A stretch of 64,000 nucleotides of DNA from assembly GCA_040223615.1 (NCBI GenBank), contig JAVKFY010000036.1:11596-75595 (forward strand), in the 5' to 3' direction. The notes under the pieces were generated by a model that had not been told where the DNA came from, did not search any database, and saw only the letters and a program-made list of their open reading frames with translations. This document shows, one piece after another, positions 6,658 to 11,796 of the stretch. This DNA comes from Alphaproteobacteria bacterium. Its GTDB lineage: Bacteria > Pseudomonadota > Alphaproteobacteria > GCA-2731375. The stretch's first letter is position 1. The number at the start of each line of letters is the position of its first letter. The position numbers and the translations under genes are program-made.

Positions 6658-7506
6658 TTACTTCTCGGTCTCCACCAGTCCCTTGACGAACAGCCGCTGC
6701 ATCACCAGCACCACGATCACCGGCGGCAGCATCGCCATCATCGCCATCGCCATCACCTCGTTCCACACCGGCGCGGTGTCGGCGACCGCGACCAGCCGCT
6801 GAATGCCCATCACCACCGTGGCGAAGCGCGCCTCGGTGGTGATCAGCAGCGGCCACAGATACTGGTTCCAGCCGAAGATGAAGAGGATCACGAACAGCGC
6901 CGCGATATTGGTGCGGGACAGCGGCAGCAAGATGTCACGGAAGAATTTCATCGGCCCGGCGCCGTCGATGCGCGCCGCCTCGACCAGTTCGTCGGGCACG
7001 GTCATGAAGAACTGCCGGAACAGGAAGGTCGCCGTGGCCGACGCGATCAGCGGGATCGACAGGCCGGCGTAGCTGTTCAGCATGCCGAGGTCGGCGACCA
7101 CCTTGAAGGTCGGCAGGATGCGCACCTCGACCGGCAGCATCAGCGTCAGGAAGATGAGCCAGAAGCAGAACATCCGGAACGGGAAGCGGAAGTAGACGAT
7201 CGCGAAGGCGGAGATGATCGAGATCGCGATCTTCCCGATGGTGATCGAGAGCGCCATGATCAGGCTGTTCAGCATCATCCGCGCCACTGGGCCGCCATCG
7301 GCGTTGACGTTCCCTTCGCCCAGGACCTTGGCGTAGTTCGCGTACATGTGGTCGCCGGGCAGCAGCGGCACCAGTCCGGTGATCAGCGCGTCCTGCGGAT
7401 GGGTGGAGGCGACGAAGGTGATCCAGATCGGCAGCAGCGTGATGGCGATGCCGCCGAACAGCACAGCGTAGGCGAACCAGAGCAGATAGCGTCGGTTTTC
7501 GACCAT
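6658..7506 (-). CDS. ugpE: sn-glycerol-3-phosphate ABC transporter permease
   Basis: MVENR start, [12 protein letters not shown] motif, [18 protein letters not shown] end. Confidence 0.95.
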
Positions 7507-8387
7507 CAGTACTGCACCCGCCGCTCGATATAGCGGAACTGCACCACCGTCAGCGCCACGACGATGACCATCAGCACCACCGACTGCGCCGCGGAGCTGC
7601 CCAGGTTCAGGCCGATGAAGCCGTCATTGAACACCTTGTAGACCAGGATCGTGGTGGCGCTGGCGGGACCGCCGCTGGTGGTCGCGTGGATGGTGCCGAA
7701 GGTGTCGAAGAAGGCGTAGACGACGTTGACCACCAGCAGGAAGAAGGTGGTCGGCGACAGCAGCGGGAAGATGATGGTCCAGAACCGCTTCATCGGTCCG
7801 GCGCCATCGATCGCCGCGGCCTCGATCAGCGAACGCGGAATCGCCTGCAAGCCGGCCAGGAAGAACAGGAAGTTGTATGCAATCTGCTTCCAGGTCGCCG
7901 CCAGCGTCACCAGGATCAGCGCGTCGATACCGTCGAGCTGGTGGTTCCAGTCATAGCCGAGCCAGCGCAGGAAGTAGGCGTTGATGCCGATCGACGGGTT
8001 GAACAGGAAGTACCAGAGCACGCCGGCGATCGCCGGGGCCACGGCGTAGGGCCAGATCAGCAGCGTCTTGATGGTGCTGGCGCCCTTGATGATGCGGTCG
8101 GCCATCACCGCCAGCAGCAATGCGGAACACATCGCCAGCGCGGCAACCGCGAAGCTGAAGCCGAAGGTACGGCCGAACGAGCCGATATAGTGCTCGTCGG
8201 TCGCCAGGTCGGTGAAGTTGTCGAACCAGACGAACTTGGTCGACAGGCCGAACGCGTCCTCCACCAGCACCGACTGGAACAATGCCTGGCTCGCCGGCCA
8301 CAGGAAGAAGACGACCGTGATCACGAGCTGTGGCAGCACCAGCAGATACGGCAACCAACGGTGCCGGAAGACGACTCGCTTTTCCAT
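7506..8387 (-). CDS. ugpA: sn-glycerol-3-phosphate ABC transporter permease
   Basis: MEKRVVF start, [28 protein letters not shown]. Confidence 0.95.
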
Positions 8388-8402
8388 GTCGGGAACGGGT
8401 GA

Positions 8403-8434
8403 GGCCGCCGCCGGTCTCGGTTCCGGCGGCGGCC
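8403..8434. terminator. Intercistronic hairpin between ugpB and ugpA (mRNA stabiliser or partial terminator)
   Basis: Perfect 12-bp inverted repeat GGCCGCCGCCGG-N8-CCGGCGGCGGCC just after the ugpB stop. Confidence 0.65.
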
Positions 8435-8443
8435 CCGTTCAGG

Positions 8444-9757
8444 TCAGCCGTTGGCGTCCTGGAACTTGCGCAGCAGGTCGTTGCCGCGCTTCACCGCGTC
8501 GTCGAGGCCCTCCTTGGCGGTCTTGTCGCCCGCCCACACGGCCTCCAGCTCGTCGTTGATGACATCGCGGATCTGCACGAAGTTGCCGAAGCGCAGGCCG
8601 CGCGAGTTGGCGGTCGGCTGGTTCAGGCTGAGCTGCTTGATCGCCGTGTCGGTGCCCGGCGCCTTCTCGTAGAAGCCCTGCTTCTTGGACAGCTCGTAGG
8701 CCGCCGTGGTGATCGGCACGTAACCGGTCGCCTGATGCCAGTCGGCCTGGATCTCCGGTGACGACATGAAGTTGAAGAACTTCGCGACGCCCTCGTACTC
8801 TTCCTGCGGATGGCCGCGCAGCACCCACAGCGTAGCGCCGCCGATGATCGAGTTCTGCGCCTTGGCGGCGACGTCGGTGTTCACCGGCAGCATCGCCTGA
8901 CCGTAGTCGAACTTGGCGTTGCCTGCGATCGAACCGTAGTAGGCAGAGGAATTCATCCACATGCCGCATTCCTGGTTCATGAACTTCGGCAGGCTCTCGC
9001 CGCGCCGGCCGCCATAGTCGAACAGCTTCGACTTCTGCCAGTCGGCGATCTTCTGGATCATGCCGACGACATGGTCGTTGTTGAAGGTCAGCTCGGTGTC
9101 GAGACCGGCGAAGCCGTTCTCCTTGGTGCCGATCGGCAGGTTATGCCAGGAGGAGAAGTTCTCCACCATCACCCACGACTGCCAGCCGAAGGAGAAGCCG
9201 CAAGGCATGCCCGACGCCTGCAGCGCCTTGGCCGCGCTCTCCATCTCGGCCCAGGTCTGCGGCGGCTTGTTCGGGTCCAGGCCGGCTTTCTTGAAAGCGT
9301 CCTTGTTGTACCAGAGCACCGGCGTGGAGCTGTTGAACGGCAGCGAGAGCAGCTCGCCCTGCGGCGTGGTGTAGTAGCTGACCACCGCCGGGAGGTAGGC
9401 GTTGATGTCGAACGCCTGGCCGGTGTCCTTCATCAGCTCGTGCACCGGGTAGATCGCGCCCTTGGCCGACATCATGGTCGCGGTGCCGACCTCGAACACC
9501 TGCACGATGTGCGGCTGCTGCTTGGCGCGGAAGGCGGCGATCGCCGCCGTCATGGTCTCGGTGTAGTTGCCCTTGTTGACCGGGACGACCTTGAAGTCGG
9601 ACTGGCTGGCGTTGAACTTGGTGGCGATCTCGTCGACCTTCTCGCCGAGCTTGCCGGTCATGGCGTGCCACCACTGAATCTCGGTCGCCGCGTATGACGC
9701 GGTTGCGACCAGGGCCACGCCAGCGAATGCCGTCGAAGCCAGAATCTTTCTGAGCAT
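8444..9757 (-). CDS. ugpB: sn-glycerol-3-phosphate ABC transporter substrate-binding protein
   Basis: Signal peptide, EIQWWHAM, QVFEVGTATMM, PFNSSTP, NSIIGGATLW. Confidence 0.96.
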   Translation of the reverse strand: MLRKILASTAFAGVALVATASYAATEIQWWHAMTGKLGEKVDEIATKFNASQSDFKVVPVNKGNYTETMTAAIAAFRAKQQPHIVQVFEVGTATMMSAKGAIYPVHELMKDTGQAFDINAYLPAVVSYYTTPQGELLSLPFNSSTPVLWYNKDAFKKAGLDPNKPPQTWAEMESAAKALQASGMPCGFSFGWQSWVMVENFSSWHNLPIGTKENGFAGLDTELTFNNDHVVGMIQKIADWQKSKLFDYGGRRGESLPKFMNQECGMWMNSSAYYGSIAGNAKFDYGQAMLPVNTDVAAKAQNSIIGGATLWVLRGHPQEEYEGVAKFFNFMSSPEIQADWHQATGYVPITTAAYELSKKQGFYEKAPGTDTAIKQLSLNQPTANSRGLRFGNFVQIRDVINDELEAVWAGDKTAKEGLDDAVKRGNDLLRKFQDANG

Positions 9758-9864: not shown

Positions 9865-10833
9865 TCAGGCGCCGCCGGCGACCTCGGCCAGGCGGTCGGG
9901 ATAGTCGGAAATGATGCCGTCGACGCCGAGCTCGATCAGGCGGCGCATGTCGTCGGGATCGTTCACCGTCCAGACCACCACTTTCAGGCCCAGCGCGTGC
10001 GCCTCGGCGATATTCTCCGCCGTTACCTCGCGGAAATAGGGCGACCAGACGTCGCCGCCCATCGCCTGGATCAGGCGCGGCACCGAGCCGTCATGGTCGT
10101 CGAGGTCGAAGCCGGCGGTCCATGGCGACGGGCCGTCCTGGCCGCGCTTGATGTTGTCGAGCCAGCCCTGCTGCGCGGTCAGGTAGACGGTGGTGACCTC
10201 CGGCTCGACCTGCCGCACGTGCTGCAGCGTGCGGAAATCGAACGACTGGATGGTGGCGTGGCTGAGCGCACCGGCCTCGCGCAGCACCGCCAGCACCGCG
10301 TCGGCGAAGTCCTCCGGCCCGAGCGTCTCCGCCGGCTGCAACGGGCTGATCTTGGTCTCGATGTTGTAGCGCACCGGCCGGCCCGCCGCCTTGCCCAGTG
10401 CCAGCACCTCCGACAGCTTCGGGAACCGGGTGCCGTCGATCGGCTGCTGGTCGGCGAAGTTGCGGGCGTAGCGCGAGCCGGGCTTGATGCGGCCGATGTC
10501 GTAGGTCTGCAATTCGGCGTAGGTCAGGTCGTGGATCGCCGGCGTTGGATCCGCCAGCCATTCGCCGTCCGGGCCACGGGTGATCTCCGGCGTCAGCCGG
10601 CGGTCGTGCGAGACCACGACGATGCCGTCGCTGGTCACGCCGGTGTCGAGTTCCAGCGTCACCATGCCGACGTCGATCGCCTTCTTGAAGGCCGGCAGCG
10701 TGTTTTCCGGCAGCAGGCCGCGCGCGCCCCGATGTCCCTGTGTGTCCAGCTTTGTGTCCAGCGACCCCGCCGTTGCCATCTGCGCACCCGCTCCCATCGC
10801 CACGATCAACCCGATCGCCAGCCGCAAGCCCAT
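9865..10833 (-). CDS. Glycerophosphodiester phosphodiesterase (GDPD), with signal peptide
   Basis: GHRGARGLLPENTL, ELD, HD, NIETK, WTVND, DGIISDYP; start MGLRLAIGLIVAM at 10833. Confidence 0.92.
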   Translation of the reverse strand: MGLRLAIGLIVAMGAGAQMATAGSLDTKLDTQGHRGARGLLPENTLPAFKKAIDVGMVTLELDTGVTSDGIVVVSHDRRLTPEITRGPDGEWLADPTPAIHDLTYAELQTYDIGRIKPGSRYARNFADQQPIDGTRFPKLSEVLALGKAAGRPVRYNIETKISPLQPAETLGPEDFADAVLAVLREAGALSHATIQSFDFRTLQHVRQVEPEVTTVYLTAQQGWLDNIKRGQDGPSPWTAGFDLDDHDGSVPRLIQAMGGDVWSPYFREVTAENIAEAHALGLKVVVWTVNDPDDMRRLIELGVDGIISDYPDRLAEVAGGA

Positions 10834-10849
10834 GATCCGGTCCCCTGGT

Positions 10850-11071
10850 CTAACCGGCGACGACGCCGGCCACTTCGTCGTCGGTCGGAAACCGGCCGAG
10901 CGACTTCTTGGAGAACCGCAGGTCGCCGTCGACGACAATCTCGAACACGCCGCCCGAGCCTTTCTTCAGCGCCACCTCGGCGCCGTGACGATCGACCAGG
11001 ATGTCCCTCGCACGGAGGGCACGCGGTTCGTAGTTTCAACTCACGCAGTATTCGATCTCAATCTTCGCCAT
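10850..11071 (-). CDS. SelW/SelT/SelH (Rdx) family selenoprotein, 73 aa, Sec at codon 12
   Basis: MAKIEIEYCVS-U-NYEPRALRARDILVDRHGAEVALKKGSGGVFEIVVDGDLRFSKKSLGRFPTDDEVAGVVAG*. CxxU motif, GxFEI(V)xVDG and GRFP Rdx signatures; AAAGGAG RBS; TGA at 11038-11036. Confidence 0.92.
11002..11021 (-). promoter_or_regulatory. Putative bacterial SECIS hairpin
   Basis: UG-CCCUC-[CGUGC]-GAGGG-ACA stem-loop; the GU-containing loop starts about 21 nt 3' of the UGA. Confidence 0.7.
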
Positions 11072-11133
11072 GGAAGTCTCCTTTGGCTGTGCCGACTCCT
11101 GTGCCAGAGCCGGCCGGCGATGGCAAGCCGGGC

Positions 11134-11796
11134 TCAGTCGGCGGCGTCAGCGGCCAGCGCGACATAAGGCGCCATCGGCAACACCTCCTCGCCACGGACC
11201 AACGGCATGCAGTCGGGCGGGTAGTCCTGGCGGAAGCGACCGCCGGCCTCACGCACGGTCTCGATGAAGCGGTCGAGGTGCGCCATGGCGCCGCCCGGCA
11301 GGTCGTGCAGCACCACCAACGACCAGGGCAGCGGCCGCATCAGCTCGCGTGCGCGCGTCGGCCAGCCGTCGGCGTCCTCCCAATCGCGGGGGATCACGTT
11401 CCACAACACGCACGTGAAGCCGCCGGCCTTCAGACATGACAGCGCTTCCGGGCTCAGCAGGTGCCGGCCGATAGCGCCGCCACCGCCGAACGGGCGGAAC
11501 AGCTTGTCGGGGTGGGCGAGATCGCCGATCAACGCCTGGGTGCGCTCGATCTCGTCGACACCACGACCTGCCTCGCCCAGCCGACCCAGCGGCGTTTCAT
11601 GCGAATAGGTGTGGTTGGCGATCCAGTGGCCCTCGGCCGCGGCGCGCTGCGCCAGCGCCTGTCCCGCCGGCTCGGCCAGCTTGCGGCCGAGCACGAAGAA
11701 CGTGGCTGCCACGTCGCGGCGCGCCAGCGTGCGAAGGACTTGCGGCGTGGCGTCCGGGTCCGGGCCGTTGTCGAATGTGAGGGTGACGTCGAACAT
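11134..11796 (-). CDS. Polysaccharide deacetylase (CE4/NodB) family protein
   Basis: LTFDNGP, ATFFVLG, NHTYSH, FRPFGG, VVLHD. Confidence 0.85.
   Translation of the reverse strand: MFDVTLTFDNGPDPDATPQVLRTLARRDVAATFFVLGRKLAEPAGQALAQRAAAEGHWIANHTYSHETPLGRLGEAGRGVDEIERTQALIGDLAHPDKLFRPFGGGGAIGRHLLSPEALSCLKAGGFTCVLWNVIPRDWEDADGWPTRARELMRPLPWSLVVLHDLPGGAMAHLDRFIETVREAGGRFRQDYPPDCMPLVRGEEVLPMAPYVALAADAAD

Follow-up and report, generated by a model that had tools for sequence, protein, structure and literature searches.

SelW-like proteins have been listed among the prokaryotic selenoprotein families since 2005, as one of the commonest, and in the Sargasso Sea data, as summarised in passages of PMC1088965, they form the largest selenoprotein family with 48 genes. 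In the complete bacterial genomes surveyed in 2006 ten SelW-like genes were tabulated; Alphaproteobacteria contributed none of these and had FdhA as the sole family listed (PMC1794560, Tables 1-2). Here we describe a gene of this type, referred to as selW, in a stretch of 64,000 nucleotides from a genome deposited as Alphaproteobacteria bacterium (GenBank assembly GCA_040223615.1, contig JAVKFY010000036.1, positions 11,596 to 75,595 of the forward strand); this whole stretch is called the window, and all positions given without a contig name are counted from its first letter. The gene occupies 10850..11071 of the minus strand, it carries an in-frame UGA as codon 12, followed by a hairpin resembling a bacterial selenocysteine insertion sequence (SECIS), and, as judged from comparative analysis, it is very probably a genuine gene for a SelW-like selenoprotein that contains selenocysteine (Sec).

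The selW gene and its product

On the minus strand, the ATG start codon (11071-11069) is preceded by a Shine-Dalgarno sequence AAAGGAG (11078..11084) at a spacing of 6 nt, and opens a frame of 73 codons that ends in a TAG stop (10852-10850). The ATG is followed by ten sense codons, the last three being TGC-GTG-AGT, then by TGA (11036..11038), and 61 sense codons separate this TGA from the TAG. Translation with U at the TGA yields the product MAKIEIEYCVSUNYEPRALRARDILVDRHGAEVALKKGSGGVFEIVVDGDLRFSKKSLGRFPTDDEVAGVVAG, and its redox motif is C9-V-S-U12, where the opening residue of CxxU, Cys9, is encoded by TGC at 11045..11047. The frame past the TGA stays open to the TAG and contains GSGGVFEIVVDG, FSKK and GRFP. 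An earlier note on this DNA, made from the letters and a list of open reading frames (ORFs), had proposed this anatomy (ribosome-binding site, ATG, EYCVS-TGA-NYEPRA and TAG), and each of its statements on the sequence matches the minus strand. It had also claimed that the ORF track overlooked the gene; indeed, the plain ORF list contains in the selW frame nothing but a fragment of 41 residues (10850-10975).

This fragment, the only outcome of standard ORF calling, and the many fragments of relatives, 41-52 residues long, in public protein collections would suit a reading in which the TGA is a true stop, present in a decayed Cys-type Rdx pseudogene or introduced by a sequencing or assembly error, with the 41-residue fragment or nothing at all being made. 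We regard this as barely conceivable in view of the conservation of the UGA among relatives, for which 60 related genomes were searched and a further 80 loci were drawn from species-representative genomes. A homologue was found in 30 of the 32 further genomes that belong to the same family, and exactly one in-frame TGA in 34 of the 35 matches that cover residue 12, the sole exception being a 42%-identical match from another family (genome G048) without a stop at that codon. In the set of 110 related loci, which includes records fetched twice and corresponds to 98 distinct stretches of 51 nt and 97 distinct proteins, the aligned codon is TGA in 110/110 cases from many genera; the added loci come mostly, by title, from Stellaceae, Rhodospirillales or 'Alphaproteobacteria bacterium' metagenome-assembled genomes (MAGs), with the addition of Desertibaculum subflavum, whose copy is 76% identical. 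At the protein level the 11 codons on the 5' side of the UGA are conserved, I6 and C9 without exception (C9 in 97/97 distinct aligned homologues), among homologues whose identity ranges from 56 to 95%. Conservation of the protein sequence ahead of the UGA, together with a TGA at every one of these loci, excludes sequencing error and pseudogene: a pseudogene would not retain the frame, the fold-defining residues and the frozen hairpin (see below) over such a range of identity, and the ribosome-binding site and ATG upstream, as well as the full Sec machinery of the genome, speak against a true stop too.

The assignment of the read-through product to a protein family is based on score, motif and fold. 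It matches the Pfam family Rdx (PF10262) with an E-value of 8.5e-17 and 61.6 bits, the cut-off being 22.6, and the NCBIfam model TIGR02174 CXXU_selWTH ('SelT/SelW/SelH family protein') with 53.1 bits, the cut-off being 34.2; a comparison with these two models had been suggested in the earlier note. The sequence matches found in the PDB are the Rdx proteins 3dex, 2ljk (MIEN1) and 2fa8, and in all three (3/3) residue 12 of the query falls on the second Cys of CxxC. The placement of the TGA at the second position of the CxxC/U motif, as originally noticed, is thus confirmed by the motif C-V-S-U, by the constancy of the codon among relatives and by the Cys of the solved homologues. A structural model made with AlphaFold2 from an alignment of 97 sequences (pLDDT 93.9, pTM 0.83) comprises strands at residues 3-9, 32-38, 43-47 and 50-54 and a helix at 15-29, with CxxU at the junction of strand 1 and helix 1. 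A Foldseek search with it returned crystal structures of bacterial SelW-related proteins as the top matches (2fa8: TMq 0.90, rmsd 1.1 A, E 3.1e-8) and mouse SelW (2npb) with TMq 0.75, and ordinary thioredoxins only at E >= 0.016. By all three measures the selW product belongs to the Rdx/SelW-like family.

In public annotation the relatives are named 'selenoprotein W-related protein' or 'SelT/SelW/SelH family protein'. Most of those in the databases are fragments of 41-52 residues that start past the UGA, and the family is thus systematically clipped by gene callers in metagenome annotation.

The hairpin downstream of the UGA

A SECIS-like hairpin CCCUC/GAGGG with GU in the loop, about 21 nt on the 3' side of the UGA, had been the other main element of the original proposal, and it is present at 11003..11022 of the minus strand. 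The 5-bp stem pairs 11019-11015 with 11009-11005 and encloses the loop CGUGC (11014-11010), and below it there are a bulged G and two further pairs. In GCCCUC-CGUGC-GAGGG the start of the stem lies 16-17 nt past the UGA and that of the loop 21 nt past it; the loop has a G at position 2, followed by U, as the bacterial SECIS model asks. The constraints of bSECISearch, as summarised in the legend to Fig. 2 of PMC13188914, are a loop of 3-9 nt, a stem of 4-16 bp, a spacing of 16-37 nt and an energy <= -7.5 kcal/mol; the values here, 5 nt, 5 bp, 21 nt and -9.0 kcal/mol, respectively, satisfy all four. The energy is that of the isolated 21-nt hairpin, for which z = -1.84 and 9 of 200 shuffled sequences fold equally well. 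As the folding energy by itself fails to single out this hairpin, its significance rests on comparative evidence.

The first kind of comparative evidence is the choice of codons. The hairpin is formed by five codons, at positions +6 to +10 relative to the UGA, which are nearly frozen among 30 genomes (GCC in 29/30, CTC in 29/30, CGT in 30/30, GCG in 29/30 and AGG in 29/30), with a third-position entropy of 0-0.21 bits; in contrast, four different codons serve for the invariant Pro at +4 (1.39 bits), and the equally invariant Tyr at -4 is encoded by its two codons in the proportion 14/16 (1.0 bit). Of the Arg codons in this genome CGT accounts for 6.7% and AGG for 2.8%, and of the Leu codons CTC accounts for 17.6%; with such minority codons the frozen choice is not a matter of codon bias.

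The second kind is covariation. Over the 98 distinct sequences the stem pair 21-33 (alignment columns) is C-G in 84, U-A in 8, G-C in 2 and U-G in 3, and 11 cells are changed on both sides, compared to 1.0 +/- 0.9 in column shuffles, none of which (0/500) reaches the observed value; a shift of the partner column by 1 to 3 places lowers the pairing from 88% to 34-60%. A locus from an Acetobacteraceae MAG (L110:3028-3078) has a wholly different stem of 8 bp (-16.1 kcal/mol) round the same CGUGC loop. There the hairpin is displaced by 3 nt, i.e. one codon nearer to the UGA, and CxxU is followed by GYEPRARAARD, so that the loop is kept while both the stem and the peptide have changed. The frozen synonymous sites and the covariation support the interpretation of the hairpin as a bacterial SECIS located just 3' of the UGA.

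A different interpretation would be that the UGA is read through, yet not as Sec, either by near-cognate insertion of Trp or Cys or under a reassigned code, the hairpin then being a generic stimulator or a by-product of the peptide ALRAR. In its favour, the hairpin lies within a strongly conserved peptide and most of the stem columns never vary. We nevertheless consider it extremely improbable: TGA otherwise serves as a regular stop here, the neighbouring deacetylase gene ending in it; the UGA coincides exactly with the redox Cys of the homologues; the synonymous sites are frozen on rare codons, AGG and CGT in particular, beyond what conservation of the peptide calls for; the hairpin fits the printed bacterial SECIS model; and the same apex follows a UGA in three other genes from families with a known Sec position, described in the next section. 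The reading of codon 12 as Sec is therefore preferred.

Selenocysteine machinery and further candidate genes

The genome, which is 98.8% complete and consists of 81 contigs, encodes the components needed for Sec decoding on a contig (C31) other than that of selW. The genes selA (566.4 bits), selB (458.7 bits) and selD (292.1 bits) all score above the curated cut-offs, and a single tRNA-Sec with the anticodon tca is located at C31:63654-63748. SelD is the C-terminal half of an ORF of 732 residues (minus strand of the contig; 6990-9188 of the extracted stretch), whose N-terminal 300 residues form a pyridine nucleotide-disulphide oxidoreductase domain (PF07992, E 7.1e-27). Fusions of SelD with domains of this kind have been described before. 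The search for selA, selB, selC and selD that the earlier note had proposed has thus found them all, with selC represented by the tRNA-Sec.

It had also been claimed that this alphaproteobacterium decodes Sec for a selenoprotein other than formate dehydrogenase, and the data support it. Only one full gene for the formate dehydrogenase alpha subunit is present in the genome (C61:200670-202718; TIGR01591, 765.7 bits), and it contains no in-frame stop. A genome-wide search for a Sec-type formate dehydrogenase with the models TIGR01553 (15 matches) and TIGR01591 (18 matches) revealed no in-frame stop in any of the matches, the weaker ones to molybdopterin enzymes included, and no fdh gene adjoins selA-selB or the tRNA-Sec. 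FdhA appears not to be a selenoprotein in this genome and, its only full gene being free of in-frame stops, would not be served by the Sec machinery.

Further candidate selenoprotein genes were sought by scanning the genome for a TGA followed, 14-32 nt downstream, by a stem of 5 bp or more that carries the loop CGUG[C/U]. The scan yielded 96 matches, of which 57 have no fewer than 5 codons ahead of the TGA and 20 behind it. Four of the 57 look protein-like, namely selW and three others; the read-through products of these three match selenoprotein families, with U at the Sec position of the respective family. The first of the three, on the minus strand at C3:37802-38917, encodes an 'alkylhydroperoxidase-related (seleno)protein' of the AhpD_rel_CFYUT family (NF041238, 461.5 bits with a cut-off of 175) with the motif CAYUT; its frame of 371 codons includes one in-frame TGA, and a 6-bp hairpin with the loop CGUGC lies 24 nt past the UGA. 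The second, on the minus strand at C58:19176-20279, encodes a ResA/TlpA-like protein with a thioredoxin fold and a C-terminal tetratricopeptide repeat (TPR) region, whose match to the ResA-like WAxxUGC model NF041054 (269.5 bits) is below the cut-off of 300; it has the motif WASWUGC at the in-frame TGA and a hairpin with the loop CGUGU 20 nt past the UGA. The third, on the plus strand at C25:50159-51064, is PrdB/GrdB-like (TIGR04483, E 6.8e-34, below the cut-off), with the motif MUPVC of the UxxC type and a 7-bp hairpin with the loop CGUGU 17 nt past the UGA. The hairpins of all three genes comprise 6-7 bp, have energies between -6.0 and -7.9 kcal/mol and share the C-CGUG[C/U]-G apex with selW, which suggests that in this organism the apex marks real Sec codons. 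Applied to the 57 matches, a filter based on the G+C content of codon positions passed the genes on C3 and C58, as well as a TGA ahead of a normal gene on C51; selW and the PrdB-like gene narrowly miss its arbitrary thresholds, and it can serve as a rough control only.

These candidates lead us to a more general proposal, which we put forward tentatively, holding it a little more probably wrong than right. In this proposal, the clade, i.e. mostly uncultured soil and freshwater Alphaproteobacteria from Stellaceae and their neighbours, would retain the Sec machinery in the absence of a Sec-containing FdhA, solely for a few selenoproteins of the thiol-oxidoreductase type (SelW-like, AhpD-related CxxU, ResA-like WAxxUGC and an orphan PrdB-like protein), by means of a single lineage-specific SECIS apex C-CGUG[C/U]-G, on which SelB would have specialised and which in selW would have been frozen long enough to dictate the peptide ALRAR.

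Proposed mechanism, gene neighbours and known systems

We propose that selW is a complete and functional gene for a cytoplasmic SelW-like selenoprotein of 73 residues. When the ribosome arrives at UGA12, the hairpin beginning 16 nt downstream, which sits within the codons for A-L-R-A-R, would recruit the SelB-GTP-Sec-tRNA(Sec) complex and Sec would be inserted instead of termination; according to what is established for Sec insertion in Bacteria, SelB would contact the apex of the hairpin. The tRNA(Sec), encoded like the other three components away from selW, would be charged with serine, to be converted by SelA at the expense of selenophosphate made by SelD. The product would act as a small thiol/selenol oxidoreductase with a thioredoxin-like fold, in which Sec12 may attack an oxidised substrate (a disulfide or a sulfenic acid), Cys9 would resolve the adduct with formation of an intramolecular selenenylsulfide, and glutathione or thioredoxin would restore the reduced form.

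A number of observations weigh against this interpretation or some part of it. With respect to function, both the redox mechanism and the choice of reductant are borrowed from the Rdx family by analogy, and a passage of PMC1088965 calls the function of SelW-like proteins unclear, with the CxxU motif suggesting a redox role; besides, NF041051 SelTWH_Campy, an equivalog and the closest named model, gives 81.6 bits, less than its cut-off of 88, which places the selW product outside that group. With respect to the hairpin, its 66-nt context folds no better than shuffled sequences (z = 0.15) and the minimum-energy fold uses other pairs, while a scan of 10700-11250 with Rfam at E <= 10 gave four matches at chance level, none of them SECIS-like. 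In the middle of the stem, the pair 22-32 (window positions 11017 and 11007) is a C-A mismatch in 14 of the 98 sequences, where AGG is replaced by AAG and hence Arg by Lys, with no compensating change in column 22, and the sixth, outer G-C pair (19-35) is formed in only 44 of the 98 and is absent from the window itself. Most stem columns are invariant and hence silent on pairing, and their constancy derives in part from the conserved peptide ALRAR. The three additional genes were found by means of the loop motif, so the occurrence of the apex at every Sec codon of the genome is not demonstrated by them, and the remaining 53 of the 57 candidates were set aside as non-coding on visual inspection and codon-position G+C only. 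Finally, no RNA sequencing run was found to contain the selW stretch; three DNA runs with small shares of it (0.04-0.12 of the sampled words) yielded only short fragments, 21-118 nt long and for the most part derived from different organisms, none of which spans the UGA with fitting flanks, and these runs speak neither for nor against the interpretation.

The genes next to selW belong to other families. Upstream on the same strand lies a gene of the polysaccharide deacetylase family (11134..11796; PF01522, E 3.3e-20), which ends, 62 nt ahead of the selW ATG, in an ordinary TGA stop, and downstream a glycerophosphodiester phosphodiesterase (GDPD) gene (9865..10833; PF03009, E 5.9e-44), whose start codon (10833-10831) is found 16 nt past the selW stop. 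The GDPD ORF begins MGLRLAIGLIVAMGAGAQMATAG, and by eye its first 23 residues are hydrophobic and resemble a signal peptide. The order on the minus strand is deacetylase, selW, GDPD and a solute-binding protein of a sugar-phosphate-type ATP-binding cassette (ABC) system, and no terminator-like site was found on this strand between 8300 and 12100; selW and GDPD are possibly co-transcribed here. The same order recurs in a single genome of the same genus, at 84-90% protein identity. From these features, one could suppose that the selenoprotein cooperates with the exported GDPD and the sugar-phosphate-type binding protein, for instance as a redox partner or sensor in the use of glycerophosphodiesters. 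We find it very unlikely. A tblastn search with the GDPD, deacetylase and binding protein of the window against the 110 loci, most of which carried 1.6-3.2 kb of downstream sequence and among which the same-genus contig is represented twice, found them only in the window's own and the same-genus loci. When the 116 ORFs that flank the gene at the 58 loci with 2.5 kb or more on each side were clustered, the largest cluster had 6 members; selW is thus a gene without a conserved partner. Moreover, SelW has no signal peptide, its first strand starting at residue 3, in contrast to the hydrophobic N-terminus of GDPD. Hence, of the 'unexpected pairing with glycerophosphodiester use' noticed originally, the 16-nt gap stands and the pairing itself is not conserved; the adjacency of selW and GDPD is a local arrangement, which does not speak for a functional link.

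The practical consequence is for annotation. A complete and conserved gene proves invisible to ordinary ORF calling, and a well-supported selenoprotein is added to a lineage within the class that the tables of the 2006 survey credited with formate dehydrogenase only (PMC1794560). The nearly invariant hairpin with one covarying pair provides a clean natural case of an RNA signal that constrains the choice of codons and probably also the peptide. The knowledge of the SelW-like proteins as such is unchanged, and the locus gives no clue to their substrate. The novelty is modest, as the SelW-like family was known already, and it consists in the host clade, in the frozen SECIS with an apex shared by several genes, and in a selenoproteome free of FdhA.

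Among the known systems, the Cys-type bacterial Rdx proteins of solved structure, i.e. Atu0228 of Agrobacterium tumefaciens (2fa8), SAV_2001 (3dex) and the SelW-related protein of Vibrio cholerae (2p0g), share the fold of the selW product (TMq 0.90-0.91, rmsd 1.1-1.4 A) and an equally placed redox motif at 32-34% sequence identity; they differ in having CxxC, in their length of about 100-107 residues with extra termini, and in needing neither a SECIS nor the Sec machinery. Mouse SelW (2npb) and MIEN1/Rdx12 (2ljk) have CxxU or CxxC on the same thioredoxin-like beta-alpha-beta-beta-beta-alpha core (TMq 0.75 and 0.80, respectively), with an identity of only 25-30%, and eukaryotic SelW depends on a SECIS in the 3' untranslated region together with SBP2 and eEFSec, whereas the gene described here would use a bacterial SECIS in the coding region together with SelB. 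Compared to the bacterial SECIS model, as given in the figure legend of PMC13188914, the stem is near the short limit and extends only past the bulged G, and it corresponds to no Rfam model. The C-CGUG[C/U]-G apex is not met in the passages of PMC1088965, PMC1794560, PMC13188914 and PMC9312934 used here, and no literature search was aimed at it. The closest systems are the prokaryotic SelW-like selenoproteins as portrayed in those passages of PMC1088965 and PMC1794560: they belong to the same hidden Markov model (HMM) family and have the same motif and fold, with a single Sec in CxxU, and, as here, they are encoded by a small stand-alone gene, with a SECIS in the coding region immediately on the 3' side of the UGA and a G in a small apical loop. 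What distinguishes selW from them is its host clade, soil and freshwater Alphaproteobacteria of the Stellaceae/Rhodospirillales type, and a SECIS that is nearly invariant across this clade.

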